DNA of 58,340 nt from Clostridia bacterium (GTDB lineage Bacteria > Bacillota > Clostridia > Christensenellales > UBA1242): the NCBI GenBank assembly GCA_045637945.1, contig JAZUAI010000048.1, positions 1-58,340 of the forward strand. Direction: 5' to 3'. The stretch's first letter is position 1. Each line of letters begins with the position of its first letter. Position numbers and translations under genes: made by a program. Below are positions 932-29,267 of this stretch, in pieces. The notes beneath the pieces are model-generated. The model ran no database searches, was not told the origin of the DNA, and worked only from the letters and a program-made list of their open reading frames with translations.

Positions 932-2701
932 TTATTCGTTATCCTTTTTAGGTAAATCAAGTTTAATGTGAACATCTTTAAGTTGTTGTGGGAAAACTTG
1001 ATTTGGTGCGCCCATAAGTGGGTCTTGAGCTGATTTGTTCATTGGGAAAGCAATAACTTCTTTAATACTTTCTTCATCACAAATAAACATAAGCAATCTA
1101 TCAAAGCCAATTGCAGCGCCTGCGTGAGGAGGAGCCCCATATTTGAAAGCATTGAAAAGTGCTGGGAATTTATTTTCAACAACTTCTTTTGGATAACCTG
1201 CAATTCTAAATGCCTCAACCATAACATCACAGTTGTGATTTCTAACAGCGCCACTAGCAAGTTCAACACCATTTAATACAAGGTCATATTGGTAAGCAAT
1301 AATTTCAAGTGGGTTTTGTTCTTTTAAAGCCTTCATTTCTCCTTGTGGCATTGAGAAAGGATTGTGTGAAAATTCTACCTTACCTTCATCATCTTCTTCA
1401 TAGAAAGGAAAATCAACAACAAAACATGGCTTGAAAACATTTTTATCAATCAAATCTAATTTATTACCAAGCTCATTTCTAAGTAAGCCTGCTAATTTCA
1501 TAGCTTTTAATCTTTTTGGATCAGCAATAATAAATATTGTTTCACCATTTTCTAAGTTCATTTTTTCAATAAGTTTCTTAGTATCGTTTTCATCAAAGAA
1601 TTTTGCTGCAGGGCCAGTAAATTCATTGTTTTCATATTTTAAGTAAACAAGACCACCTGCGCCTTGCAATTTAATATAATCTGTTAAACCATCAAAAAAT
1701 CTTCTGCCCATTTCATTTGCTTTTGCTTTTGTTGCAAAAATATTTTTGCTGTTTAAAACTGCAAATGTGTGATTTGTAAAATCTTGTGTTAAATCAACTA
1801 AAGTTAATGGATTGCGTAAGTCTGGTTTATCTGAACCATATGTAAGCATTGCATCGTTAAACTTAATGCGTCTAAATGGTGGTTTATCAACTTCTAACTT
1901 TGTAAAATGAGTTAAAGTATTGTATAAAACAGTTTCTAATACTTGTAAAATTTCATCTTGAGTTGCAAAACTAACTTCAAAGTCTAATTGATAAAAGTCT
2001 GTTGGGCTACGGTCTGCTCTGGCATCTTCATCTCTAAAACATGGAGCGATTTGGAAATATCTGTTAAAACCACTAACCATAAGCAATTGTTTAAATTGTT
2101 GTGGACTTTGAGGTAAAGCATAGAAATTTCCTGGATTCATTCTACTTGGAACCAAGAAGTCTCTTGCACCTTCTGGACTTGATGATGTCAAAATTGGAGT
2201 TTGAACTTCTGTAAACTCTAAATCATTCATTTGTTGTCTAATAAATTTAAGCAACTCTGCTCTTAAAAGAATGTTTGAGTAGTTTTGTTCATTTCTTAAG
2301 TCTAAATACCTGTATTTAAGTCTAGTATTTTCGTTTTGATCTCTTGCTTTTAAAATTTCAAAAGGTAAAACCTCTGTGCAAGGACCTAAAACTTTAATTT
2401 CTTGTGCTAAAATTTCAATTTCACCAGTAGCCATTTCGGTGTTTATGTTTTTTTCGCCACGAGACCTGACTTCACCTGAAATTGAAACAGTGCTTTCTCT
2501 TGTTAAATTTTCAACAAGTTTTTCATCTTCAACAAACACTTGCACAACACCTGTTTGGTCACGTAATGTAATAAATGTTAGGCCACCCATTTTTCTTATG
2601 TTGTTAACCCAACCAGCTACTTTAACAATAGCACCAATATGTTTTGCACTTAGTTTGCCGCACATATGAGTATGATATATGTTATTTTTTAAGCTAATCA
2701 T
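932..2701 (-). CDS. aspS: Aspartate--tRNA ligase
   Basis: Class II AspRS hallmarks are present: N-terminal OB-fold (HMCGKL..GWVNNIRKMGGLTFITLRDQTGVVQV), CFRDEDARADRSP, and C-terminal PPHAGAAIGFDRL. The start is set at the internal Met (MISLKNN), which has a GAGAGA SD. The upstream ATG at 2734 lacks an SD and sits beside a TATAAT box. Confidence 0.93.
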   Translation of the reverse strand: MISLKNNIYHTHMCGKLSAKHIGAIVKVAGWVNNIRKMGGLTFITLRDQTGVVQVFVEDEKLVENLTRESTVSISGEVRSRGEKNINTEMATGEIEILAQEIKVLGPCTEVLPFEILKARDQNENTRLKYRYLDLRNEQNYSNILLRAELLKFIRQQMNDLEFTEVQTPILTSSSPEGARDFLVPSRMNPGNFYALPQSPQQFKQLLMVSGFNRYFQIAPCFRDEDARADRSPTDFYQLDFEVSFATQDEILQVLETVLYNTLTHFTKLEVDKPPFRRIKFNDAMLTYGSDKPDLRNPLTLVDLTQDFTNHTFAVLNSKNIFATKAKANEMGRRFFDGLTDYIKLQGAGGLVYLKYENNEFTGPAAKFFDENDTKKLIEKMNLENGETIFIIADPKRLKAMKLAGLLRNELGNKLDLIDKNVFKPCFVVDFPFYEEDDEGKVEFSHNPFSMPQGEMKALKEQNPLEIIAYQYDLVLNGVELASGAVRNHNCDVMVEAFRIAGYPKEVVENKFPALFNAFKYGAPPHAGAAIGFDRLLMFICDEESIKEVIAFPMNKSAQDPLMGAPNQVFPQQLKDVHIKLDLPKKDNE

Positions 2702-2840
2702 AAATGTGTATCTCTCTTTTAATATATTAAACAACTATATATTATACATAAACACATTAAAAATCAATTATTTTCTTAAAAATAACCTTTTTTTTCTTTA
2801 TTTTTTTTAATGTGCAAAACGACAATAAAAAGCCATTTTA

Positions 2841-2869
2841 TTGACAAAATTGACTTTTGGTAATATAAT
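2841..2869 (+). promoter_or_regulatory. Consensus sigma-A promoter (TTGACA-17-TATAAT)
   Basis: TTGACA at 2841-2846, a 17-nt spacer, then TATAAT at 2864-2869. This lies about 34 nt upstream of the ATG at 2903, which is preceded by a GGAGG SD. Confidence 0.7.
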
Positions 2870-2902
2870 ATGAACAAATAAAAAATATGGAGGCATTTAA
2901 TC

Positions 2903-3745
2903 ATGGGAAAAAATAGAATGAAAGATAGACATGATAAACTTGCATATAAAATGAAATATGGTGAAAACGGTGGTTTAATTAAAAACACTTTGAATATTGT
3001 TCAAGGAACTTTAAATGCTGCTGCTGTTGCTGGCGCTTCATATGGTGGAATTCAAATTTATGAGGCTGCTTCACAAAACCCTGAAATGCTTGGCAGATAT
3101 GTTGCTGCTGGTATAGCAGCTACTGTGGCTGCAGGTTGTTTATATGGATTAGGCAAACTTTCAAAAGCAACTGTATTTAAAAAGATTCCTTCTTTTGTAA
3201 GAGAAACTGCTTCACGTGTTGGCAGAGTTGTTGGTGGAGTTGTTATTCCATTAAGTCTTTCAGCTTGCTTAATCTTTGGTGGTGGCGGCGAAGAAGCTAA
3301 GGATATTCCAGTTGACACAACTCACCCAACTGGTGTTTGTGAACAATGCGGACAAAATTATGAAGATCTTTTAAAAAGATTAGAAGAATTGGGTGCTAAA
3401 GTTGATGACTTTAAAGGTTGCAACTGCAAACAAAACCAACAAAAAGATCCTCCTCAAAAAGATCCAACTGAAGAAACTACTACTCCTACAGATCCAACTG
3501 AAGATACCGATGTTGATATTGAGGAACCTACTGATCCAAAACCTACTGATCCAAAACCTACTGAACCTGAAGAAACTGAACCAACCGAACCTGAACAAAC
3601 TGAACCTGAACAAACCGAACCTACTCAACCAAAAAACCCTATTGATGTTGACCAAGATGAACACATTGTTGATACTACAGGTGGTTCAACTACTGCAACA
3701 GGAACAGTAAAAACAAATACAACTAACCACGAAATGGGAAACTAA
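2903..3745 (+). CDS. Hypothetical membrane protein with an acidic Pro/Thr/Glu repeat tail
   Basis: 280-aa ORF with a consensus promoter and SD. It has two or three Ala/Gly-rich hydrophobic segments, a CEQCG..CNC segment, and then PTDPKPTDPKPTEPEETEPTEPEQTEPEQTEPTQP. I recognise no family. Confidence 0.6.
   Translation: MGKNRMKDRHDKLAYKMKYGENGGLIKNTLNIVQGTLNAAAVAGASYGGIQIYEAASQNPEMLGRYVAAGIAATVAAGCLYGLGKLSKATVFKKIPSFVRETASRVGRVVGGVVIPLSLSACLIFGGGGEEAKDIPVDTTHPTGVCEQCGQNYEDLLKRLEELGAKVDDFKGCNCKQNQQKDPPQKDPTEETTTPTDPTEDTDVDIEEPTDPKPTDPKPTEPEETEPTEPEQTEPEQTEPTQPKNPIDVDQDEHIVDTTGGSTTATGTVKTNTTNHEMGN
3527..3630 (+). repeat. In-frame tandem 15-nt/9-nt repeats encoding a PTDPK/TEPEx tract
   Basis: CCTACTGATCCAAAA occurs twice in tandem (3527-3556). 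It is followed by degenerate CCTACTGAACCTGAA / ACTGAACC(T/A)GAACAA units. Confidence 0.8.
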
Positions 3746-3764
3746 TTTATAATAAAAAACAAAA

Positions 3765-3793
3765 AGAACACTTCAAAAAGTGTTCTTTTTTTT
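3765..3793. terminator. Bidirectional intrinsic terminator
   Basis: Stem AGAACACTT/AAGTGTTCT with loop CAAA. A-run upstream and T-run downstream. It sits between convergent gene ends (3745 and 3823). Confidence 0.8.
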
Positions 3794-3822
3794 GTTTATA
3801 TTTAATTTTAACAGAAACAATA

Positions 3823-5199
3823 TTAGTTAAGTTTGTTTAAAACATAGTCTTTTAAATCTTCAATTTTAATTCTTTCTTGTTTCATTGTATCTCTATCACG
3901 AACAGTTACACAGTTATCTTCTAGAGTATCAAAGTCAATTGTTACGCAGAATGGTGTTCCAATTTCGTCATGTCTTCTATATCTTTTACCAATACTTCCA
4001 GATTCATCAAAGTCACAGTTAAATTCTTTTTGAATAAGTTTAAATACTTCTGTAGCTTTTTCATTTAAATTCTTTTGAAGTGGTAAAACAGCAACTTTAA
4101 ATGGAGCAAGTTGTGGTTTTAATTTTAAAACAACCCTTGTTTCTCCGCCTTCAAGTTCTTCAACATTGTAAGCATCACAAAGAGTTACTAAGAATAATCT
4201 GTCAGCACCAATTGAATATTCAACAATATTTGGTAAAATCTTTTCATTTGTAAAAGGATCTGTATAAAGCATTGTTTTTCCTGAATACTCTTGGTGACGT
4301 GATAAATCCCATGTTCCTCTATGGTGAATACCATTTAATTCTTGCCAACCAATTGGAAATTTGTATTGAATATCACAAGCAGCTTTTGCATAGTGAGCAA
4401 GTTTATCGTGATCATGATATCTTAATTTTTCTGGGTTAATACCAATAACATTTTTAACAAAGTCTAAAGCTTTTGCCTTATAATCTTTGTAAACATCCAT
4501 ACTTTCTTCTTCTTTGCAGAATTTTTGAAGTTCCATTTGTTCAAATTCAACTGTTCTAAATAAGAAGTTTCCTGGTGTAATTTCATTTCTAAAGGATTTA
4601 CCAATTTGAGCAATTGCAAAAGGAACTTTTGCTCTCATAGTTCTTTGAACGTTTTGAAAGTTAATATACTCACCTTGGCAAGTTTCTGGACGAAGGTAAA
4701 CAACATCGTTTGCTCCACCTTCACCGATCATTTGACGAGATGTTGTAAACATTGGGTTAAACTTTCTAATTTTAGTCCAATCTTTATTTCCGCAATTTGG
4801 ACATTTTACATTATTGTCTTCAATATATTTTTCTAATTCTTCATCAGTCATCGCTTCTGCTGAAACTGTGTTTTTGCTGTGATTTTCTACAATAGTATCT
4901 GCTCTAAATCTTTGTTTACAGACTTTACAATCCATTTTTGGATCACCAAAGCTTTGAACGTGACCACTTGCTTCCCATACTCTTGGGTTCATTAAAATTG
5001 CAGCATCAACACCATAAGTTGAAGCATCTTCTTGAACAAAGGTCTTCCACCATGCTCTTTTAATGTTGTTTTTTAGCTCTACACCAAGTGGACCAAAGTC
5101 CCATGTGTTTGCAAAACCACCATAGATTTCACTTCCTGGGAAAACAAATCCCCTGCTTTTGCAAAAAGCTACTATTTGTTGCATTGTAATTTCTTCCAT
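3823..5199 (-). CDS. glyQS: Glycine--tRNA ligase (alpha2 homodimeric type)
   Basis: 458-aa ORF. N-terminus is IVAFCKSRGFVFPGSEIYGGFANTWDFGPLG. Class II core and C-terminal anticodon-binding region are present. A Gly T-box leader precedes it. Confidence 0.95.
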   Translation of the reverse strand: MEEITMQQIVAFCKSRGFVFPGSEIYGGFANTWDFGPLGVELKNNIKRAWWKTFVQEDASTYGVDAAILMNPRVWEASGHVQSFGDPKMDCKVCKQRFRADTIVENHSKNTVSAEAMTDEELEKYIEDNNVKCPNCGNKDWTKIRKFNPMFTTSRQMIGEGGANDVVYLRPETCQGEYINFQNVQRTMRAKVPFAIAQIGKSFRNEITPGNFLFRTVEFEQMELQKFCKEEESMDVYKDYKAKALDFVKNVIGINPEKLRYHDHDKLAHYAKAACDIQYKFPIGWQELNGIHHRGTWDLSRHQEYSGKTMLYTDPFTNEKILPNIVEYSIGADRLFLVTLCDAYNVEELEGGETRVVLKLKPQLAPFKVAVLPLQKNLNEKATEVFKLIQKEFNCDFDESGSIGKRYRRHDEIGTPFCVTIDFDTLEDNCVTVRDRDTMKQERIKIEDLKDYVLNKLN

Positions 5200-5257
5200 T
5201 TTTTTATCCTCTCTCTTTTTATTTTTAGATTAAGTTGTAAAGAAACTATTTTTGCAT

Positions 5258-5422
5258 AAAAAAAGCCCCTTAACAACTTTTAAAAAGTAGTTAAGGGACG
5301 ATAATTTTTTATTACCGCGGTTCCACCCTAATTGGATAAAATCCCACTTTAAACTTTTGTCGTAAAGTAAAACGGATATCATTTTAATATCTCCAAGCAA
5401 ATCGCCACTTTGCTTATTGGAT
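5258..5422 (-). promoter_or_regulatory. T-box riboswitch leader (glycine specifier candidate GGC)
   Basis: The minus strand reads AATTAGGGTGGAACCGCGG (plus 5315-5333), which is the conserved T-box sequence. It is followed by terminator CCCTTAAC...GTTAAGGGG plus T7 (plus 5258-5299). The UGGA in the T-box bulge matches a U73 discriminator, as seen in the tRNA-Gly at 26581. A GGC triplet in the upstream hairpin AAGCAAA-GTGGCGA-TTTGCTT (plus 5404-5406) is the candidate specifier. I could not resolve stem I architecture by eye. Confidence 0.85.
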
Positions 5423-5428
5423 AGTTTG

Positions 5429-5457
5429 ATGTTAACAAACATTTTTTTGTTTGTCAA
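5429..5457 (-). promoter_or_regulatory. Sigma-A promoter of the glyQS leader (TTGACA-17-TAACAT)
   Basis: The minus strand has TTGACA (plus 5452-5457), a 17-nt spacer and TAACAT (plus 5429-5434). Confidence 0.55.
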
Positions 5458-5480
5458 CTCTTATTTTTATTGTTTTTTTA

Positions 5481-9484: not shown

Positions 9485-10561
9485 ATGAACATTTCAAAAA
9501 AAATATTTAGTTTAGTTAAAAACAATTATCAATTTATTGCTTGTTTTATTCTTTTAGTCTTTATTTTTATTATAACCATAAACCCAAGCCCCTATATTTT
9601 TGCAAGTTTAAATGGTTTTCTAATATGGGGTAAAATTGTTTTACCAAGCTTATTTTGTTTTTTTATTTTAACAAAATTACTTATGCAATTTGATTCTACA
9701 CTAAAAATTTTTAACTTTTTAAATAAACCGTTTGAAAAACTATATAACACGCCAAAAGTTGGTGGTTATATTTTTGCTATGAGCGCAATATCAGGCTATC
9801 CAATTGGCGCAAAGCTAATATCTGAGTTTTATGAAAATAATGTGATAACTAAAGAAGAAGCTTTTAGATTGGCAACATATTGCTCAACTTCAGGTCCTAT
9901 GTTTATTATAGGAAGTATTGCCTCAAGCTTGTTTTTTAATATAAAGTTAGGCATTGTAATTATTATTTCACATCTACTTGGGGCTTTAATAAATGGCTTA
10001 ATTTTTAGAAAATTTAACTTAAATCATATTACAATAAATAAGAAAAATGCTTTTACTAAAGTAAGTTATAATATTATAACTAAAGACGCAAGTAATTTAA
10101 ATAGTGTAAATTTTGAGAAAAAAAACGATATTTTAACAAAAAAATTTGATTTAAACGAAATTATGCTTAATACAATAACTTCTGTTTTAATGGTTGGTGG
10201 ATATATTGCTTTGTGTTTTACATTGCTTGAAATTGCTGTTAATATTGGAATTTTAACACCTATAGTCAAAATAATTGATTTAATTTTGCCAAGGAATTTA
10301 GCAATAAGCGAAGGTTTAGTTAAAGGAATTGTTGAACTAACAAATGGTTGTGTGTATTTTGCAAATAAAAATATACCTATAAGAATATTGGCTGTTGCCT
10401 TAACTGGACTTGTTTCTTTTGGTGGTTTTTCAATTCACTTACAGTCACAAATGTTTTTGTCAAAATGCAAAATTAAATATAAAAATTTTCTACTATCAAA
10501 AATTTTGCATAGTATTATAAGTGTGGTTTTAAGCCTCATTTTTAGTATAATAATATTATAA
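9485..10561 (+). CDS. ylbJ: Sporulation integral membrane protein YlbJ
   Basis: 358-aa polytopic protein. The block WGKIVLPSLFCFFILTKLL...ISGYPIGAKLISEFYENNVITKEEAFRLATYCSTSGPMFIIG aligns, from memory, with B. subtilis YlbJ. Confidence 0.75.
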   Translation: MNISKKIFSLVKNNYQFIACFILLVFIFIITINPSPYIFASLNGFLIWGKIVLPSLFCFFILTKLLMQFDSTLKIFNFLNKPFEKLYNTPKVGGYIFAMSAISGYPIGAKLISEFYENNVITKEEAFRLATYCSTSGPMFIIGSIASSLFFNIKLGIVIIISHLLGALINGLIFRKFNLNHITINKKNAFTKVSYNIITKDASNLNSVNFEKKNDILTKKFDLNEIMLNTITSVLMVGGYIALCFTLLEIAVNIGILTPIVKIIDLILPRNLAISEGLVKGIVELTNGCVYFANKNIPIRILAVALTGLVSFGGFSIHLQSQMFLSKCKIKYKNFLLSKILHSIISVVLSLIFSIIIL

Positions 10562-10689: not shown

Positions 10690-11622
10690 TTATTCATAAA
10701 AATCATAACAAATTGTATTTAACTCTTTAATCTCAAGACGCATACTTCTTTCATTACCTACAATAGAGTTAACAGCCATAACAAGGGCTACAATAATTTT
10801 TACATTTTTAATTTCACAAGCATCAAACAAAGCATCAAGTAAAAGTGAAATATTAGATTTTTTTAATGGATTTCTTACATAAACAAGTTTATCTTCAAGA
10901 ATTCTTGATAAACGTGCAATGCGTTTAAATAACAAGTTTAGTTCTTCCTCTTCTTCAATAAGTTTTTGTTGAGCTTCTAAAACGGCTTCAACTAAAGGAT
11001 TTTCTTGTGGTTGTAATTCAACTGTTGTTTCAACAATAGTTACATCTATATTTTCATTTTCTTGATCTTCTCTCATTTGTTCCTCTAATTCTTTTTCTTT
11101 TAAAATATGTTCTTTAATTTTTGCATCAATAATATTGTTTAATGGTTCATCATCATCTTCAACAGATACTGACCTTGGATCAATATTAAAGTATTCTGCA
11201 ACAGCATTTCTAAAAGGAATAATAATTGTTTTTGCAAAACCAGCATATTCTTCATTTTGATTTGAAGCAAGTGGAAATTGAACTTTGATAAAATCGTTAA
11301 AATTTATTCTTTTGCTATCAATTTCAACCAACAATCCAAAAACAAGAGGAATAATTTTTTCATTTTCATCTGGCAAGACAAATCTTTCATTGCCAGCAGA
11401 ATCTTTAACTACTGCTTTTTGAAATTCTAAGTCAAAATTATAATTTATCATATATTCATCAATTAAATTATAAATTTCTGTTGACTCAGTAATTGATTTT
11501 AATATTTTTGAAATTTTAATATCAGCTAATATAAATTTGCCATGTATAAGTTCATTACAAGCATTTATAAAATTTATTACGCCGTTTTGATTTATATTTT
11601 CATTATCCATACTAATATTCAC
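10690..11622 (-). CDS. Hypothetical protein with a central acidic coiled-coil region
   Basis: 310-aa ORF with coherent coding composition and an E/D/Q-rich middle (KEKELEEQMREDQENEN..QQKLIEEEEELN). I recognise no family. Confidence 0.6.
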   Translation of the reverse strand: MNISMDNENINQNGVINFINACNELIHGKFILADIKISKILKSITESTEIYNLIDEYMINYNFDLEFQKAVVKDSAGNERFVLPDENEKIIPLVFGLLVEIDSKRINFNDFIKVQFPLASNQNEEYAGFAKTIIIPFRNAVAEYFNIDPRSVSVEDDDEPLNNIIDAKIKEHILKEKELEEQMREDQENENIDVTIVETTVELQPQENPLVEAVLEAQQKLIEEEEELNLLFKRIARLSRILEDKLVYVRNPLKKSNISLLLDALFDACEIKNVKIIVALVMAVNSIVGNERSMRLEIKELNTICYDFYE

Positions 11623-17442: not shown

Positions 17443-17982
17443 TTATTCAATAATATATTTCCAACCCGGTTGCCAGTTACCAGTTAATCTCCAATCAGTT
17501 TTCAAAGCATCTTCCCAAGTTTTGTTTTTTGTTAAAACCTCAAAAGCAAGTTGAGGTGCTTTATGACTGACCAACGCAACTTTTTTATTGTTAAAATTTT
17601 GTTTTAAATATTCTACAAAACTTTTAATTCTTACTTCAACATCTTTTAAACTTTCGCCGTTTGGAAAAGGCATATCAATATGTTGCGAATAATCAACCAA
17701 AAAATTATCCTTACCATCAAGATCACCATAGTTACATTCTCTAATTCTAGAGTCTTGGATAATTTTTATATCTCTACCTTCAAAATCAATTTTTGCACTA
17801 TCAACTGCCCTTTTTAAGTCAGAGCAAATAACAACGTCAAAATATTGATCTTTTATAATTTTGTTTAAATTTTTTGCTTGTTCAATACCCTTTTGTGATA
17901 ACTCACCTGGAAGCCAGCCTGTTGCTTTTTTATTTAAATTATCAACTGTTGTTCCATGAACAAAATATGTTATTTCAACCAT
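17443..17982 (-). CDS. Histidine phosphatase (phosphoglycerate mutase-like) family protein, atypical VHG motif
   Basis: 179 aa. It has YFVHGTTVDN where RHGxxxxN is expected, plus CSDLKRAVDS and a second His in LVSHKAP. Confidence 0.7.
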   Translation of the reverse strand: MVEITYFVHGTTVDNLNKKATGWLPGELSQKGIEQAKNLNKIIKDQYFDVVICSDLKRAVDSAKIDFEGRDIKIIQDSRIRECNYGDLDGKDNFLVDYSQHIDMPFPNGESLKDVEVRIKSFVEYLKQNFNNKKVALVSHKAPQLAFEVLTKNKTWEDALKTDWRLTGNWQPGWKYIIE

Positions 17983-18043
17983 AACAATATCTCTCCTTAA
18001 TCAATATTAACATAAAGAAAAATAAATTGAAACAAATTAAAAT

Positions 18044-18070
18044 AAAAAAACCCTTAGTTTTAACTAAGAG
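18044..18070 (-). terminator. Intrinsic terminator after tRNA-Leu(TAG)
   Basis: The minus strand reads CTCTTAGTT-AAA-ACTAAGGG followed by T7. Confidence 0.65.
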
Positions 18071-18092
18071 CTTTCTATTTCCCACTTTGTTA

Positions 18093-18175
18093 TGGTGCGG
18101 GCGAGAGGACTTGAACCCCCACGGTCTCCCAATAGATCCTAAGTCTATCGCGTCTGCCAGTTCCGCCACACCCGC
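18093..18175 (-). tRNA. tRNA-Leu (anticodon TAG)
   Basis: The reverse complement folds with acceptor GCGGGTG/CGCCCGC, anticodon loop CTTAGGA, a long variable arm, T loop TTCAAGT and an encoded CCA. Confidence 0.88.
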
Positions 18176-18271
18176 ATTTATTTTTTTATTAAAGAGGTTT
18201 TCGTTAAAGGAGATATTAAAACAAAGGAATATATATTTTATTTTAAAATTAAAACCCCATAATAAAAAAAA

Positions 18272-18347
18272 TGGTGATCCACCCGAGGTTCGAACTCGGG
18301 ACCCCTTGATTAAAAGTCAAGTGCTCTACCGACTGAGCTAGTGAATC
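18272..18347 (-). tRNA. tRNA-Lys (anticodon TTT)
   Basis: The reverse complement is GATTCAC-TA-GCTCAGTCGGTAGAGC.. with anticodon loop CTTTTAA, T arm CCGAG-TTCGAAC-CTCGG, and CCA. Confidence 0.9.
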
Positions 18348-18477
18348 ACAAAAAAATATTAAACTAAGTGAACGTTATGCATTTTACAACATATTATTAT
18401 AAATTGCAAGTATTTTTTTTGTAAAATTACAAAAAATTTTTATCAGTTAATCTCACCCACTTTTTTAGAAAAAAAAT

Positions 18478-18552
18478 TGGCTGGGGTGGCAGGATTTGAA
18501 CCTACGGATGCAAGAGTCAAAGTCTTGTGCCTTACCGCTTGGCTACACCCCA
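18478..18552 (-). tRNA. tRNA-Gln (anticodon TTG)
   Basis: The reverse complement is TGGGGTG-TA-GCCAAGCGGTAAGGC.. with anticodon loop CTTTGAC, T loop TTCAAAT, 3' end CACCCCAGCCA, and the U1-A72 pair typical of tRNA-Gln. Confidence 0.88.
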
Positions 18553-18624
18553 TCAAACTGACTTTCATATTATATACAACTTAAACAAAGAAATCAAGTG
18601 TTTTTAAAAAATTTTTTTAAAATA

Positions 18625-18653
18625 TTGACTTATTTTTTATATTGATATATTAT
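18625..18653 (+). promoter_or_regulatory. Sigma-A promoter of the asnA leader (TTGACT-17-TATTAT)
   Basis: TTGACT at 18625-18630, a 17-nt spacer, then TATTAT at 18648-18653. Confidence 0.6.
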
Positions 18654-18675
18654 CTAGGTGTAAGGAATTGTTTTT

Positions 18676-18756
18676 ATGTTCTTAGAAGTCAAAATTTATA
18701 CATTAGTTAACAATAATAATTCAAATAATAATATGGCTATTAACAATAATATATAG
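18676..18756 (+). CDS. Candidate Asn-rich leader peptide (26 codons, 10 Asn)
   Basis: An AAGGA SD at 18662-18666 precedes ATG 18676. My hand translation is MFLEVKIYTLVNNNNSNNNMAINNNI, ending at TAG 18754-18756. It is too short to appear in the ORF track. Confidence 0.5.
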   Translation: MFLEVKIYTLVNNNNSNNNMAINNNI

Positions 18757-18791
18757 GCATATCTTTTTTTGATTTTTAAGTTAACTTAAAA

Positions 18792-18827
18792 AGCACTAGC
18801 AAAAAGATAATTGCTGGTGCTTTTTTT
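18792..18827 (+). terminator. Intrinsic terminator/attenuator between the leader ORF and asnA
   Basis: 11-bp stem AGCACTAGCAA/TTGCTGGTGCT (one G-U pair), 8-nt loop, T6. It ends 70 nt before the asnA ATG. Confidence 0.75.
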
Positions 18828-18897
18828 GATATTAAGAACAATGTTTTACATTTATAGCAAATTAAATATATAATATAAATAATAGGAGAAAAACAAA

Positions 18898-19905
18898 ATG
18901 TTTTACGAAGTAGATAAAAAAGAATACAGATCGTTAAAAGGCTTTCAAACACAAAGAGCCATTAAATATATAAAGGACACCTTTCAACAACACCTTTGCA
19001 AAAACTTAAACCTTCTTAGAGTTTCTGCCCCACTTTTTGTTACAAAAGAATCTGGCTTAAACGATGACTTAAGTGGCGTTGAAAAGAAAGTTGAATTTGA
19101 ACTTAAAACAGACAAATCTAAAAAACTTGAAATTGTTCAATCTCTTGCAAAATGGAAAAGAATGGCATTGAAAAAATATGGTTTTTGGGAAGATAGTGGT
19201 TTATATACAGATATGAACGCTATAAGAAAAGATGAAGACCTAGACCAATTACACTCTGTTTATGTTGACCAATGGGACTGGGAAAAAGTTATTACTAGAA
19301 AAGAAAGAACTATCCCTTACCTTAAAAAGACAGTTGTTGCAATTTGTGATGCAATTGATCAAACTTGCCAAAAAATTAAAAAACTTTATAAAAGCATTGA
19401 TATTAAGTTTAGGAAAAAACCTTTCTTTATTACAAGCGAAGAATTGTTGCAACTTTATCCTGACTTAACCCCAAAACAAAGAGAAGATGCAATTTGCAAA
19501 AAACACCAAACTGTTTTTATTATGCAAATTGGTGACAAACTTTCAAACGGCAAACCTCATGATGGCAGAGCTCCTGACTATGATGATTGGCAATTAAACG
19601 GAGATTTATTAGTTTATCACCCAGTTTTACATAGAGCTTTTGAACTTTCTTCAATGGGCATTAGAGTTGATTCAATAAGTTTACAAGAACAACTTAAAAA
19701 AGCAAAAAAAGAAGAAAAATTAAAATTTAAATTTCACCAAGATATTGTTGCTGATGCTCTACCACTTTCAATAGGTGGAGGTATTGGACAATCTCGTCTT
19801 TGTATGTTTATTCTTAAAAAAGGTCATATTGGCGAAGTTCAATGTTCTGTTTGGGATGAAGAAAACCTTAAATTTGGCGAAGAAAACGGTTTAACAATTT
19901 TATAA
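18898..19905 (+). CDS. asnA: Aspartate--ammonia ligase (asparagine synthetase A)
   Basis: 335 aa. It has a class II aaRS-like AsnA fold with the C-terminal hallmark GGGIGQSRLCMFILKKGHIGEVQCSVW. Confidence 0.92.
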   Translation: MFYEVDKKEYRSLKGFQTQRAIKYIKDTFQQHLCKNLNLLRVSAPLFVTKESGLNDDLSGVEKKVEFELKTDKSKKLEIVQSLAKWKRMALKKYGFWEDSGLYTDMNAIRKDEDLDQLHSVYVDQWDWEKVITRKERTIPYLKKTVVAICDAIDQTCQKIKKLYKSIDIKFRKKPFFITSEELLQLYPDLTPKQREDAICKKHQTVFIMQIGDKLSNGKPHDGRAPDYDDWQLNGDLLVYHPVLHRAFELSSMGIRVDSISLQEQLKKAKKEEKLKFKFHQDIVADALPLSIGGGIGQSRLCMFILKKGHIGEVQCSVWDEENLKFGEENGLTIL

Positions 19906-19948
19906 TTAAAACTTTAAACTTAAAAACTCATTTTTAAAAAATAAAAAA

Positions 19949-19979
19949 AGATGTTTCAAAACCTGAAGCATCTTTTTTA
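19949..19979. terminator. Bidirectional intrinsic terminator
   Basis: Stem AGATGTTTC/GAAGCATCT (one G-U pair) with A- and T-runs, between convergent gene ends. Confidence 0.7.
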
Positions 19980-19981
19980 TT

Positions 19982-20773
19982 TTATAATCTGCCACCCATT
20001 AAGTTTCCTGAGTTATATTTTTTCAAGCCCATTTTAAATGATACAAACGCAAGTATAACCCACAAAGCAGTAACAGCAACACAAAGCAACATCCACCAAA
20101 TATTTGGCGTTAAAAAGAAGTATTGTGCTGGCACAAAAGTATAGAAGAACGTAGGAATTAAAGTGAAAAACAAACCCCTAACAATAAAATTAAAAATTCC
20201 TGGTGGATAGTTTGCAGCTTTGTTCATTGTTCCTTCAACAGATTTTGCTACAGCGTCTCCCCTTTTAATATAAAAACACAAAGAAACAAAAGTTACATAT
20301 ACGCTTACATAAATTAAACCAGCCATAATAATAACAGGTATTATAAGCAAGAACCAATACCAAGGAGCGCCAATTAAAAACAAAACCACATAAACATAAA
20401 ATATATCACCTATCGCAGAAACATCTGTTGCTGAGCAAGCAACGTTTAATAAAACGTTTTTAGGTTGAGTTAAATATACATCTAACTTGCCTTCATAAAC
20501 AATATCTTTTATATTCCATGCGCCACCAAAGAAAGCGTGTGAAACACCAAAGCCACCAGCTGCAATAGCCCACAACAACATTGTTTCATTAAACCCATAG
20601 CCACCAATATTATCAACAAGGTTGAAAATGATATACCATTGAATTATAAAAAACAAGTCGTTTAAAATCATCATTACTATTTGCATAAAAAATGATGGTT
20701 TATATTTCCACTCTTTTTTAATATTTAACTTATAATAATTAAAAATTAACTTAAAATTATTCTTAACCCCCAT
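19982..20773 (-). CDS. ABC-2 family transporter permease (uncharacterised three-component system)
   Basis: 263-aa protein with about six TM helices. It is last in an overlapping ATPase-permease-permease operon. Confidence 0.7.
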   Translation of the reverse strand: MGVKNNFKLIFNYYKLNIKKEWKYKPSFFMQIVMMILNDLFFIIQWYIIFNLVDNIGGYGFNETMLLWAIAAGGFGVSHAFFGGAWNIKDIVYEGKLDVYLTQPKNVLLNVACSATDVSAIGDIFYVYVVLFLIGAPWYWFLLIIPVIIMAGLIYVSVYVTFVSLCFYIKRGDAVAKSVEGTMNKAANYPPGIFNFIVRGLFFTLIPTFFYTFVPAQYFFLTPNIWWMLLCVAVTALWVILAFVSFKMGLKKYNSGNLMGGRL

Positions 20774-21560
20774 TTACATTCACCTTCTTTGTTCCTAAAT
20801 TGTAAATTAAAAAGCCAAGAGAAATAAAAATTATTACATAAATTATTTGTGAAATAGATACATTTAAAAATAAATCCCAACTAAAATTTGCCATAAGTTT
20901 GCAAGGCCCACTCATCATAGCATATACAGGACTATAACTAATTATAGGTTGCAACCATACTGGGAAAAATTCTGGTGGAAAGAACAAACCAAACAACATT
21001 TGAAATTTTTGAACTATCCAAGCAAAAGGAGTTGCCTCTTCTATCCAAAAAGTTAACAAACCCACTGAGCCATATATAACGCAAGTTAATATGATTGCAA
21101 AAAATAAACTAATAGCAAGTGGTAAAACATATAACACACTAAAGTTTTGTATTGGACCTAATAAAACAAGCCCCATAATAATTCCTGTTGGAACTAAGAA
21201 AACCAACTTCCATACAATTTCGCCAAGTTGAGAAAAAACCTGATACATAAAGTAGTTATATGGTTTGTTTAACTGATATGCAATTTTGCCTGATTTGATA
21301 TCGTTACTAAAAGCCCTTGTTATAACACGAGCATTTACAGAATACATTAAAACTTCTGCCATAATCATATACCAAATCATCATTTGAATTGTATATCCAT
21401 TAATTAAAGTTCCACCACCATTACCACCATAAATGAATTGCCATAATTGTTGGAAAATATAAATAATTACTACAAAAGATACAACAGAAGTAAGAGAGTT
21501 TGCTAAGGTCTTACTCTCTTGCTTAAAACTTGTTGAATATATGTTTAAGTATTTATTCAT
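20763..21560 (-). CDS. ABC-2 family transporter permease
   Basis: 265-aa polytopic protein. It overlaps both neighbours (11 nt and 8 nt). Confidence 0.7.
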   Translation of the reverse strand: MNKYLNIYSTSFKQESKTLANSLTSVVSFVVIIYIFQQLWQFIYGGNGGGTLINGYTIQMMIWYMIMAEVLMYSVNARVITRAFSNDIKSGKIAYQLNKPYNYFMYQVFSQLGEIVWKLVFLVPTGIIMGLVLLGPIQNFSVLYVLPLAISLFFAIILTCVIYGSVGLLTFWIEEATPFAWIVQKFQMLFGLFFPPEFFPVWLQPIISYSPVYAMMSGPCKLMANFSWDLFLNVSISQIIYVIIFISLGFLIYNLGTKKVNVNGG

Positions 21561-22530
21561 CTTTCCCCCTATATATGTCTTTTATAATATCTTCAAGTGG
21601 TGTGCTTGAAATTGAAATATCTTGCAAATCTTCTGTTGAGAACAAACTCATCAATTCTTCTATGGTTGTTTTACTCATATCAACTTCAATTTTATATAAT
21701 GTATCTTTTGCTTTTAAAACTTTTATTCCATCTTTTTCTTTTATCTTTACATTTTTCTTTAAGTTTACATCTACAATTTTTTTGTTTAAATAATGATATT
21801 TTAAATTTTTCATACTATCATCTAAAACAATTTTTCCATTGTTTATAATAATAACACGCTTACAAACTTCTTCTATATCTCCTACGTCGTGAGATGTAAA
21901 AAAGATTGTTGTGCCAAGTTCTTTATTTATCTTTTTAATCAATTTGCGTAAAGTTTCTTTTGCAATAGGATCTAAACCAATTGTTGGTTCATCAAAGAAT
22001 AACATTTTTGGGCTATGTAACAAGCTTGCTACTATTTCACACTTTATTCTTTGACCCAAGCTTAAACTTTTAACAGGTTGATACATATAATCTTTGATTT
22101 CAAAAATTGTTGATAATTCTTCAATTCTCTCTAATAATTTATTCTTTTCAATATCATATATACTGCCAAAAAATTTAAAGTTTTCATATGGTGACAAATG
22201 CACCCATAATTGCTCTTTTTGACCAAAAACTGAACCAATTTGATAAGAAAGTTTCACCCTTTCTTTGCTAGGATTAAAACCCAAAACTTTTATTTCTCCA
22301 TCGGTTGGATATAAAATTCCAGTAAGCATTTTAATTGTTGTTGATTTTCCAGCACCGTTTGGACCAATAAAAGCAAGAGTCTCGCCTTCTGCAACTTCAA
22401 AAGAAATATCATTTACTGCATTTTTAATTTGTTTTTGTCTTTTAAATAAATATTTTTTACCATTAGGCTTTACAGCCCTTTTCTTCGTTATAAACTCTTT
22501 TCTTAAATTTTTAACCTCAATAACATTCAT
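21553..22530 (-). CDS. ABC transporter ATP-binding protein
   Basis: Walker A GPNGAGKST, signature LSLGQ, Walker B LFFDEPT. The start is set at MNVIEVKNL (ATG 22530), which has a GAGGAGAG SD. The longer ORF-track start runs into the upstream terminator T-run. Confidence 0.9.
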   Translation of the reverse strand: MNVIEVKNLRKEFITKKRAVKPNGKKYLFKRQKQIKNAVNDISFEVAEGETLAFIGPNGAGKSTTIKMLTGILYPTDGEIKVLGFNPSKERVKLSYQIGSVFGQKEQLWVHLSPYENFKFFGSIYDIEKNKLLERIEELSTIFEIKDYMYQPVKSLSLGQRIKCEIVASLLHSPKMLFFDEPTIGLDPIAKETLRKLIKKINKELGTTIFFTSHDVGDIEEVCKRVIIINNGKIVLDDSMKNLKYHYLNKKIVDVNLKKNVKIKEKDGIKVLKAKDTLYKIEVDMSKTTIEELMSLFSTEDLQDISISSTPLEDIIKDIYRGKDE

Positions 22531-22553
22531 TTTTTCTCTCCTCTTTTTAAAAT

Positions 22554-22593
22554 AAAAAAACACTATTGCTAAAAAAATACTCTTGCAACAGTG
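22554..22593 (-). terminator. Intrinsic terminator in the leader of the ABC-2 operon
   Basis: The minus strand reads CACTGTTGC, a 15-nt loop, GCAATAGTG (9 bp, one G-U pair), then T7. It ends about 24 nt upstream of the ATPase start codon. Confidence 0.65.
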
Positions 22594-27683: not shown

Positions 27684-29162
27684 CTATAACAAAATACAAA
27701 TGATACCACCCTTACCTTCGTTAACAATTCTGCCCAAAGTTTTTCTCATCTTTTTTTGAGCCTCAATTGGCATTTGAACAATTTTATTATTAAGGCCTTC
27801 GTTTACTAAACTGTGCAAACTTTTGCCAAACATATTTGTTTGCCATAGTCCTTGAGGATTGTTTTCAAACTCTTTAAGCAAATATTTAACTAAGTCTTCT
27901 CCTTGTTGCTCTGTTCCAACAAAAGGGCTGATTTCTGTTTGAACATCAACTTTCATAATATGCAAACTTGGAGCACTTGCTTTTAATCTTACACCATACC
28001 TTGAGCCTTGCTTTACAACTTCTGGCTCTTCAAGTTTCATCTCTTCCATTTTAGGACTAACTACACCATACCCAGTTTCTTCAACTTGGTTTAAGGCCTC
28101 TTTAATTTTGTCATATTCCACTTTTGCATAAGCAAGTTGCTTTAAGTATGCAACAAGTTGGAAATCGCTTGAAATTTCTTGACCACATTGTTTTGATAAA
28201 ACTTTATAAAATAAGTTTGGTTTTGGTTTAATATCTAAATAAACTACACCTTCGCCCATATCAATGTTTTCTAACAAAATAGCTTCAAAATTTTCACTAT
28301 TTTCAAATAAAACAACTTTTGAGTTTAATTCTCCTATTTTATTTGCATTGTTAAGTAGTTTTTTACTTTCTTCTACAATTTCAACAATTAAATCATCTTC
28401 AAAATGTAATGCTTGTAACCATTGAGGCATTTTAACTCTTAACGAATAAATTGGAAACTCTTGTAAAATATTTTGAAAAATACAATCAATATTATCTTCA
28501 GTTAAATTTAAAACATCAACGGGAATAACTGGAACTTCATATTTGCGTTGAAGAGATCCACACAAATTAAAAGTAATTTCACTATCAGGCAATGTTGTAT
28601 TTAAAACAATTACAAAAGGTTTTTTGTTTTCTTTTAATTCTCTAACAGTTTTTTCTTCTGCTTCAACAAAGCAATTTCTATCAAGATCTCCAAAACTTCC
28701 ATCAGTAGTCATTACAACAGCAATTGTTGAGTGCTCAGTTATAACCTTTTTTGTTCCAATTTCTGCTGCTTGCTCAAATGGCAAACTTTCTTCACTCCAA
28801 GGCGTTTTTACTAACCTTGGCTTATTATTTTCTTGCAAACCTTCTGCCCCAGTTACAGAAAAACCAACACAGTCTATCAACTTTATTTTAAGGTCAACAC
28901 TATCGTTAACTCTTATTTTAACAGCTTCTTTAGGGACAAAGTTTGGCTGCGTTGTCATAATAATTTTTCCATCAGCACTTTGTGGTAATTCATCTGCAGT
29001 TCTTGATCTATCATAATCATTGTCTATATTAGGTAAAACCATTTTATTTACAAAGTTTGTTATAAATGAAGATTTACCGCATCTAACAGGGCCAACAACA
29101 CCTAAATAAATATCACCATTTGTTCTTGTTGCAATATCTTCATATACTTTATACGAATTCAT
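27684..29162 (-). CDS. spoIVA: Stage IV sporulation protein A
   Basis: N-terminus is YEDIATRTNGDIYLGVVGPVRCGKSSFI (Walker A), with SpoIVA-like sequence along the full length ending in GGIICILL. The start is set at MNSYKVYEDI (ATG 29162), which has a GGAGGA SD. Confidence 0.93.
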   Translation of the reverse strand: MNSYKVYEDIATRTNGDIYLGVVGPVRCGKSSFITNFVNKMVLPNIDNDYDRSRTADELPQSADGKIIMTTQPNFVPKEAVKIRVNDSVDLKIKLIDCVGFSVTGAEGLQENNKPRLVKTPWSEESLPFEQAAEIGTKKVITEHSTIAVVMTTDGSFGDLDRNCFVEAEEKTVRELKENKKPFVIVLNTTLPDSEITFNLCGSLQRKYEVPVIPVDVLNLTEDNIDCIFQNILQEFPIYSLRVKMPQWLQALHFEDDLIVEIVEESKKLLNNANKIGELNSKVVLFENSENFEAILLENIDMGEGVVYLDIKPKPNLFYKVLSKQCGQEISSDFQLVAYLKQLAYAKVEYDKIKEALNQVEETGYGVVSPKMEEMKLEEPEVVKQGSRYGVRLKASAPSLHIMKVDVQTEISPFVGTEQQGEDLVKYLLKEFENNPQGLWQTNMFGKSLHSLVNEGLNNKIVQMPIEAQKKMRKTLGRIVNEGKGGIICILL

Positions 29163-29234
29163 AATTTTCCTCCAGGTAAAAATTATATATGCTAAAATAT
29201 ATGCAACAATTTGTTTTATTATGATAAATAAAAA

Positions 29235-29267
29235 CAAAAAAAATAGACAAAAAAGTCTATTTTTTTA
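29235..29267. terminator. Intrinsic terminator after plsY
   Basis: Stem AATAGAC/GTCTATT with an A6 loop, flanked by A- and T-runs. Confidence 0.6.

Follow-up and report, generated by a model that had tools for sequence, protein, structure and literature searches.

An asparagine-codon-rich leader upstream of asnA in a clade of gut Clostridia, a probable leader-peptide transcription attenuator

The asnA gene and its leader

The stretch of DNA analysed here (58,340 nucleotides, contig JAZUAI010000048.1; referred to below as the 58-kb window, or simply the window) has a G+C content of about 29% and comes from an uncultured lineage of gut Clostridia represented by a metagenome-assembled genome (MAG). 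The element of interest is the leader that precedes asnA, the gene for aspartate--ammonia ligase, and that carries a short open reading frame (ORF) rich in Asn codons. The asnA product matches the TIGR00669 AsnA equivalog with 357 bits (cutoff 292.8), and an exact look-up of this protein gave no record. The gene is monocistronic and has its own terminator at 19944–19978. The features of the leader are listed below; SD denotes a Shine-Dalgarno sequence, and the roman numerals designate RNA segments as in the classical attenuators.

18625–18653, + strand: leader promoter found by scan (10 of 12 matches), with TTGACT at −35 (18625–18630), a 17-nt spacer and TATTAT at −10 (18648–18653)
18662–18666, + strand: leader SD, AAGGA, 9 nt 5' of the ATG
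18676–18756, + strand: leader ORF of 26 codons plus TAG, peptide MFLEVKIYTLVNNNNSNNNMAINNNI
18681–18694, + strand: region Ia, CUUAGAAGUCAAAA, in the 5' part of the ORF, with 14 bp of complementarity to 18767–18780 in region II
18709–18732, + strand: Asn cluster, AAC AAT AAT AAT TCA AAT AAT AAT, 7 Asn in 8 codons
18731–18740 with 18753–18762, + strand: hairpin A (Ib:II), AUAUG-G-CUAU / AUAG-G-CAUAU, the 3' arm of which holds the leader stop codon
18753–18780, + strand: region II, AUAGGCAUAUCUUUUUUUGAUUUUUAAG, the hub segment of the predicted pairings
18760–18768, + strand: predicted lower antiterminator helix, 5' strand, UAUCUUUUU, an exact reverse complement of 18801–18809
18770–18795, + strand: hairpin B, the predicted upper antiterminator helix, made of the palindrome TTTTTAAGTTAACTTAAAAA (18773–18792) plus UG/CA
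18788–18827, + strand: intrinsic terminator (III:IV), with left arm 18788–18802, loop 18803–18810, right arm 18811–18825 and a T-run to 18827
18801–18809, + strand: predicted lower antiterminator helix, 3' strand, AAAAAGAUA, comprising the last 2 nt of the left arm and the terminator loop
18884–18888, + strand: asnA SD, AGGAG
18898–19905, + strand: asnA

Asn codons make up 10 of the 26 codons of the leader ORF (AAC twice and AAT eight times, at 18709–18720, 18724–18732 and 18742–18750), and from the position of the promoter, transcription of the leader would start near 18660. A first-pass annotation of this DNA had described the promoter, the SD, the 26-codon ORF with ten Asn codons of both kinds, a strong intrinsic terminator with an 11-bp stem and a T-run 70 nt before asnA, and a 9-bp pairing of 18760–18768 with 18801–18809, all of which were found in the sequence as claimed. 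The 20-nt AT palindrome that it reported is also present, and is perfect, and its coordinates needed correction by one base, from 18772–18791 to 18773–18792.

Conservation of the leader and of its Asn run

An AsnA protein search was used to identify relatives, and DNA was fetched around those with 99, 93, 83, 80, 77 and 72% identity. This gave nine distinct leader variants, associated with asnA genes that are 72–99% identical, and every locus with enough upstream sequence has the element. The leader peptides of the relatives, named by locus, are the following.

L104: MFLKVKFYTLVNNNNSNNNMAINNNI
L085 and L088: MFLEIKKLTVNNNNQNNN(N)MAINNNI
L091: MFLKIKFVKIANNNNSNNNMAINN
L092: MTYISKIVINLNNNNNNMANIN
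L094: MFLDIKRYALELNNNINNNMTNNRK
L093: MFILLLNNLNNNNNNNGYLITK
L110: MLNFLLNNFNNNNNNDYLNNK

The first-pass annotation had raised the question of whether a short ORF with clustered Asn codons, followed by a terminator, is conserved upstream of asnA in related genomes, and it is, in 9 of 9 variants. A promoter of the form TTGAC[AT]-16/17-TAnnnT occupies the equivalent place in all nine, and a purine-rich SD (AAGGA, AAAGGA, AAGGG or GAAGGA) is located 7–10 nt before the ATG in each. The ORF, of 21–26 codons, stays open in 9/9 variants and includes an in-frame run with 6–9 Asn; the clusters of the relatives read NNNNQNNN(N), NLNNNNNN, NNLNNNNNNN, NNNINNN and NNFNNNNNN. Conservation of the peptide is limited to this run, since the N-termini diverge (MFLEVKIYTLV.., MTYISKIVI.., MFILLL.., MLNFLL..) and the C-terminal parts do so too. 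The codons at which AAT and AAC are exchanged differ among lineages, and every exchange falls on the third base of an Asn codon in the frame, as expected under selection on Asn codons. The main Asn run is interrupted in every lineage by a single codon for another residue (Ser, Gln, Leu, Ile or Phe), which may serve to tune stalling or to restrict slippage on the (AAT)n repeat.

At the nucleotide level, the longest invariant block in a MAFFT alignment is the box UAGGCAUAU(C/A)UUUUU, which is the same in all variants and is situated outside the ORF or at its end. The motifs AUGRCUA and UAGGCAU are conserved as well. In some lineages the frame through AUGRCUA encodes Met-Ala, in others Asn-Gly-Tyr or Asn-Asp-Tyr, and the retention of the motif despite this difference in frame suggests a constraint at the level of the RNA.

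No leader was found at L112 or L113 (63% and 62% asnA identity, respectively) in the approximately 215 nt of upstream sequence available for these two loci. The family thus seems to be confined to one clade, with an outer boundary lying roughly between 63% and 72% asnA identity. A pattern scan of metagenomes with ATGRCTA-N(6-24)-TAGGCATATNTTTTTT returned 8 matches, all attributable to chance and none of them near asnA.

Because AAT runs arise easily in AT-rich DNA, as the first-pass annotation had cautioned, the leader might be thought a chance product of AT-rich intergenic DNA combined with an ordinary terminator, for instance one that insulates against transcripts reading through from the divergent promoter region of the tRNA genes. 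The base composition of this genome and the AAT triplet runs of three, of which there are about 40 in the window, lend this idea some colour. The Asn cluster is nevertheless far beyond chance, even at 29% G+C. Across the six frames of the window, no other stop-free stretch has 6 or more Asn in 8 codons, and second-order Markov simulations of the window attained 7 Asn of 8 in 0 of 200 runs. Asn accounts for 38% of the codons in the leader, compared to 5.9% in nine long genes of the window, and a window scan for other amino-acid-biased short ORFs with an SD gave no credible case. As controls from outside the clade we employed asnA loci from other species among the matches listed, at most 61% identical (n=80), to which L112 and L113 were added to give 82. 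None of the 80 loci has a short ORF upstream with as many as 4 Asn in 8 codons, and a run of (AAY)≥4 within 600 nt upstream, or within the shorter sequence of L112 and L113, was present at 0 of the 82, several of which have 25–32% G+C; the element of the clade, in contrast, is still in frame at 72% asnA identity. Furthermore, the tRNA genes point away from the leader, so that nothing upstream is transcribed toward the terminator, which speaks against an insulator. The caution about AT-richness is therefore not borne out, and the comparison of sequences effectively refutes an origin by chance; we give it almost no credence.

The interval between the terminator and asnA contains a second promoter-like site, TTTACA-18-TATAAT (18845–18874, + strand; 11 of 12 matches). 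The 99%-identical contigs share it, in more distant relatives it is absent or degenerate, and it could act as a basal promoter peculiar to this species or reflect chance in such AT-rich DNA. With such a site, and with a promoter, an ORF and a terminator that form a self-contained unit, the leader could be viewed as an independent small-protein or small RNA gene, asnA being transcribed from its own promoter downstream. This is very improbable in our estimation. Promoter-like matches are commonplace in the AT-rich window (20 found against 13 expected), and the site does not persist in the relatives. The distance between the terminator T-run and the asnA ATG is only 25 nt in L093 and 23 nt in L110, and holds an SD only; this leaves no space for a promoter and an SD-containing 5' untranslated region (UTR), and asnA in these lineages can thus be reached only by read-through of the terminator. 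We regard this spacing as decisive. The restriction of peptide conservation to the Asn run, the position of the top-conserved block outside or at the end of the ORF, and the retention of AUGRCUA across a change of frame likewise argue against an independent gene.

Terminator, region II and predicted ribosome-dependent folding

The core stem of the terminator (18792–18802 with 18811–18821) has 11 bp, including one G.U, and A-U pairs extend it to 18788/18825. The extended structure has 15 pairs, five of them G-C, a predicted energy of −19.3 kcal/mol, and a T7 run. Compensatory changes on both sides were seen in 6/15 pairs, 91% of the cells of the alignment are paired, and the covariation score is greater than that of all 500 shuffles and all slid registers. 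The loop varies among the variants both in length (5–12 nt) and in sequence, and is always complementary to the invariant region II.

Region II begins with the leader stop codon, so a terminating ribosome would cover it. The stop is the first triplet of UAGGCAUAUC in 7/9 variants and is placed 4–5 nt upstream of UAGGCAUAUC in L091 and L092. The pairing between the loop and region II is constructed in several ways. The window and L091 use GAUA plus UGC; L085 and L104 have GAUA or GAU plus CC, the CC being opposite GG of region II; L093 and L110 rely on a contiguous AAGAUAUG; and L092 uses AAAUAUGC, with a matching C-to-A change in its region II. Shuffled loops equalled the observed duplex energy in a fraction of 0.03–0.20 per variant. 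Hairpin B takes up the first 8 nt of the extended left arm of the terminator in the window, and almost the whole left arm is engaged by its equivalent in L093 and L110.

Region II has two further predicted partners upstream. Hairpin A has a predicted energy of −6.1 kcal/mol alone and −10.6 kcal/mol with an extension that spans the second Asn triplets and the U-run. It is predicted in all variants and is followed by a U7 run, and the two together are a plausible candidate for a pause element, by which ribosome and polymerase would be kept in step. No covariation of hairpin A was seen in the MAFFT alignment, which misplaces this hairpin in three sequences, and the loops also, so that its pair counts for hairpin A are understated. 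The pairing of region Ia with region II amounts to −13.2 kcal/mol in the window, with a shuffle fraction of 0.012. In all variants a partner of region II is located in the SD, the AUG or the first codons (−11.5 to −20.6 kcal/mol; shuffle fractions 0–0.07), and the segment involved differs by lineage, including the SD/AUG region in L092, L093 and L110 and codons 1–9 in L094. In the nascent fold of the window without a ribosome, moreover, AAUUGUUUUU of the 5' UTR/SD region (18661–18674) pairs with AAAAAGAUAAUU of the terminator loop (18801–18814), so that two distinct U-rich segments of the leader are complementary to the loop in the window.

The first-pass annotation had found no convincing helix in competition with the terminator, and had proposed that folding with a masked ribosome could reveal mutually exclusive structures. 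For full-length RNA at equilibrium its negative impression is upheld, in that the terminator was kept under every ribosome mask and in every variant, which explains why a competing helix escaped notice. Because the equilibrium folds always hold the terminator, any switch has to rest on co-transcriptional kinetics. For 8 variants, nascent folds were therefore computed on RNA that ends 3 nt into the right arm, a 28-nt mask standing for the ribosome, and here predicted structures that depend on the ribosome position did appear. With the ribosome on an Asn codon, a common two-tier antiterminator was predicted in 8/8 variants (−7.7 to −13.3 kcal/mol). Its lower tier in the window consists of GGCAUAUCUUUUU of region II (18757–18769) paired with the terminator loop and its edges, AAAAAGAUA..UGC (18801–18814), and hairpin B is stacked on top. 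A ribosome placed on the stop codon covers region II and leaves hairpin B or a remnant of it as the sole structure (−1.4 to −6.7 kcal/mol). The direct-path barrier for refolding to the terminator is estimated at 9.6–15.8 kcal/mol with the last main Asn codon occupied by the ribosome and at 3.4–9.1 kcal/mol with the stop codon occupied, the barrier being greater in the stalled state in 8/8 variants. A pseudoknot combining the lower helix with the terminator would be excluded on steric grounds, because the linker of 0–7 nt between the 3' strand of the lower helix and the right arm is too short for a helix of 7–11 bp.

Based on these characteristics, the element most probably belongs to the ribosome-mediated (leader-peptide) transcription attenuators and makes asnA transcription depend on how much charged tRNA-Asn is available. 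This is the asparagine-sensing attenuator that the first-pass annotation had suggested, and the conservation of the leader, the covariation of the terminator and the ribosome dependence of the nascent folds support it. In the proposed mechanism, transcription would begin at about 18660 and a ribosome would load on the leader ORF. When Asn-tRNA is plentiful, the ribosome would reach the UAG at 18754, the first triplet of the conserved region II, and cover UAGGCAUAUCUU. With region II covered, only the weak hairpin B would be available, the terminator (18788–18825 and the T-run) would fold, and the polymerase would halt 70 nt before asnA. When Asn-tRNA is scarce, the ribosome would stall on the 7-of-8 Asn cluster (18709–18732), mask or melt the 5' arm of hairpin A, and leave region II free. 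Once the terminator loop has been transcribed, UAUCUUUUU (18760–18768) could pair with AAAAAGAUA (18801–18809), and this lower helix together with hairpin B would hold the left arm and the loop before the right arm emerges, which would permit read-through into asnA. If the leader is not translated at all, the 5' part of the ORF and hairpin A would keep region II occupied, and the terminator would form. The stalling of the ribosome, the pausing of RNA polymerase and the response to asparagine are what we infer from this anatomy.

Several points weigh against the attenuator. According to the energy calculations, the terminator (−13 to −20 kcal/mol) outcompetes the A-U-rich antiterminator at equilibrium in every scenario. 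Covariation in the lower helix is sparse, with one change that looks compensatory (that of L092); the shuffle fractions per variant are modest, and the lineages share ancestry. The position of the stop codon in L091 and L092 would let a terminating ribosome mask region II only in part. Within the window, 18681–18694 lies just beyond the footprint of an Asn-stalled ribosome and could recapture region II; a queued second ribosome, or kinetics, would perhaps have to keep this segment off. The promoter-like site at 18845–18874 could provide asnA transcription in the window species that does not depend on the attenuator. Finally, the charging of tRNA-Asn would report on free Asn if the genome encodes an asparaginyl-tRNA synthetase.

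The same weakness of the antiterminator bears on a different explanation, in which an RNA-binding protein, comparable to TRAP on (G/U)AG repeats, reads the AAU repeats or the UAGGCAUAUCUUUUU box, and the ORF is incidental. The triplet repeats and the invariant 15-nt box are possible protein-binding sites, a stabilising factor would help an antiterminator that is thermodynamically weak, and region II is invariant and not covarying. An incidental ORF is difficult to reconcile, however, with the maintenance of the SD, the ATG, the open frame and a stop abutting region II in 9/9 variants, when about 25 stop-free codons would arise by chance, given this base composition, with a probability that we estimate at about 0.1 per lineage. 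The T-to-C changes in the repeats are confined to Asn-synonymous sites, and the predicted switch in folding tracks the position of the ribosome, so an extra factor is unneeded. Nor is a candidate regulator gene linked to the asnA locus, the neighbours of which are tRNA and ABC transporter genes. We consider control by such a factor unlikely, if a little less so than an independent gene.

Relation to known regulators and genomic setting

The leader shows the sequence-testable defining features of leader-peptide attenuators. Among the amino-acid operons of enterobacteria, such attenuators have been described for trp, his, leu, thr, ilvGMEDA, ilvBN as well as pheA, a list that does not contain asparagine, and the logic that defines the class is that the regulated gene makes the amino acid encoded by the regulatory codons (PMC1183508). 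As in these systems, the Asn leader has a short ORF, presumably translated, in which codons for the end product of the pathway are clustered, and a stop codon placed such that a terminating ribosome would block region II. Its predicted I:II pairing and II:III antiterminator and its III:IV terminator with U-run correspond to the trp model (PMC1183508), and in its density of regulatory codons (7 of 8) it is similar to the design of the his leader. The differences include the specificity for Asn, the host, which is a spore-forming member of the Clostridia and not a proteobacterium, and the control of a single gene. The Asn leader also lacks sequence or covariance-model similarity to the leader families in Rfam, its region I is drawn from different leader segments in different lineages, and the 3' strand of its predicted antiterminator is made of the terminator loop and the edges of the arms, a separate hairpin B covering the left arm. 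It is therefore by amino-acid specificity, host group and a predicted loop-built antiterminator that it differs from the known kind.

Rfam 15 covariance models were searched at E≤10 on 17800–19400 and gave no leader-peptide family, such as His_leader, Trp_leader, Leu_leader, Thr_leader or Phe_leader, and no T-box on the leader. The sub-threshold matches there were NsiR1 (+ strand; 16.4 bits, gathering score 39), over the terminator hairpin, and SurA (− strand; 15.4 bits, gathering score 100). A T-box leader (RF00230) was considered and rejected, as the model has no match on the leader at E≤10 while it does detect T-boxes at L035 (130 bits) and L043 (101 bits), two of the 20 other loci scanned in which a T-box stands upstream of asnA. 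Amino-acid genes of the Clostridia are generally expected to be under T-box control. The proposed Asn attenuator would share with the asnA T-boxes of other Firmicutes (RF00230) the genomic position, the input, i.e., charging of tRNA-Asn, and the choice between terminator and antiterminator. Unlike a T-box, which is untranslated and binds tRNA directly via a specifier codon and the T-box sequence, the Asn leader would be translated, and it has less than half the length of a T-box. In E. coli, asnA responds to asparagine through AsnC, a DNA-binding protein of the Lrp/AsnC family that acts on transcription initiation. Such control differs from the Asn leader in employing neither a leader peptide nor a terminator.

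Full-text literature searches, the coverage of which is incomplete, returned no description of an attenuator with an Asn leader, and a literature search for asnA T-boxes added nothing relevant. The nearest case is sORF7 of S. aureus, a short upstream ORF flagged by its authors as a leader-peptide candidate on account of its unusual richness in Asn; it precedes a gene of unknown function, not asnA, and no mechanism, terminator or conservation is reported in the passages considered (bioRxiv 10.1101/2025.06.19.660503). On balance we lean toward regarding the element as the first recognised leader-peptide attenuator keyed to Asn. It would represent a self-contained family of about 170 nt, so far found in one clade of AT-rich, spore-forming gut Clostridia, which would stand where a T-box precedes asnA in some other Firmicutes and would make use of a loop-built antiterminator. 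It would also have originated de novo for a pathway of a single gene and a single step, in a phylum dominated by tRNA-sensing riboswitches.

The repertoire of amino acids known to be subject to leader-peptide attenuation is small, and an Asn version would widen it and add an example from the Clostridia; the textbook mechanism would be extended rather than overturned. The element is compact, and its nine natural variants meet one pairing problem in different ways, the predicted loop-based antiterminator being a variation on the theme of a weak helix that kinetically beats a strong terminator. It might serve as a marker of Asn-responsive regulation in the annotation of MAGs and as a small Asn-responsive part for synthetic biology.

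Upstream of the leader, and divergent from it, is a cluster of genes for tRNA-Leu(UAG), tRNA-Lys(UUU) and tRNA-Gln(UUG) (18093–18552, − strand). The promoter-like site of this cluster, at 18597–18569, is arranged back to back with the leader promoter, within about 30 nt. The Leu-Lys-Gln cluster adjoins the leader in 8/9 lineages (among them the window, L085, L091, L092, L093, L104 and L110), and in L094 it is replaced by tyrS. Downstream of asnA, the products of 19982–20773 and 20763–21560 (both − strand) are permease-like partners of the ABC ATPase encoded at 21553–22563, and these permease-like genes are kept downstream of asnA in the relatives with 93–99% identity. The locus L083 (ena:ERZ27316723:k141_381927) has the same leader and an asnA that is 99% identical, with a truncated ABC-permease gene and then glycosyltransferase genes downstream, and the G+C content of the entire locus is 42%; this contig may be a chimeric assembly or the outcome of a recent rearrangement.

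Elsewhere in the window, hisS (3823–5199) and aspS (932–2734; bacterial type, with a GAD domain) are in tandem on the − strand within 932–5480. A T-box is expected upstream of such synthetase genes in a Firmicute; apart from tRNAs, no Rfam family, the T-box included, reached its gathering score anywhere in the 58-kb window, the hisS/aspS region included. ORFs of 260–360 amino acids with no Pfam or NCBIfam match are found at 2903–3745 (+ strand), 9485–10561 (+ strand), 10690–11622 (− strand) and within 19982–21560 (− strand). The first of these, situated between hisS and aspS and opposite in strand to both, is perhaps not a genuine gene. A full-length SpoIVA is encoded at 27684–29237 (− strand; three Pfam domains, E=1.6e-105), and its presence indicates that the 29% G+C host is an endospore-forming Firmicute and is not Mollicutes-like.

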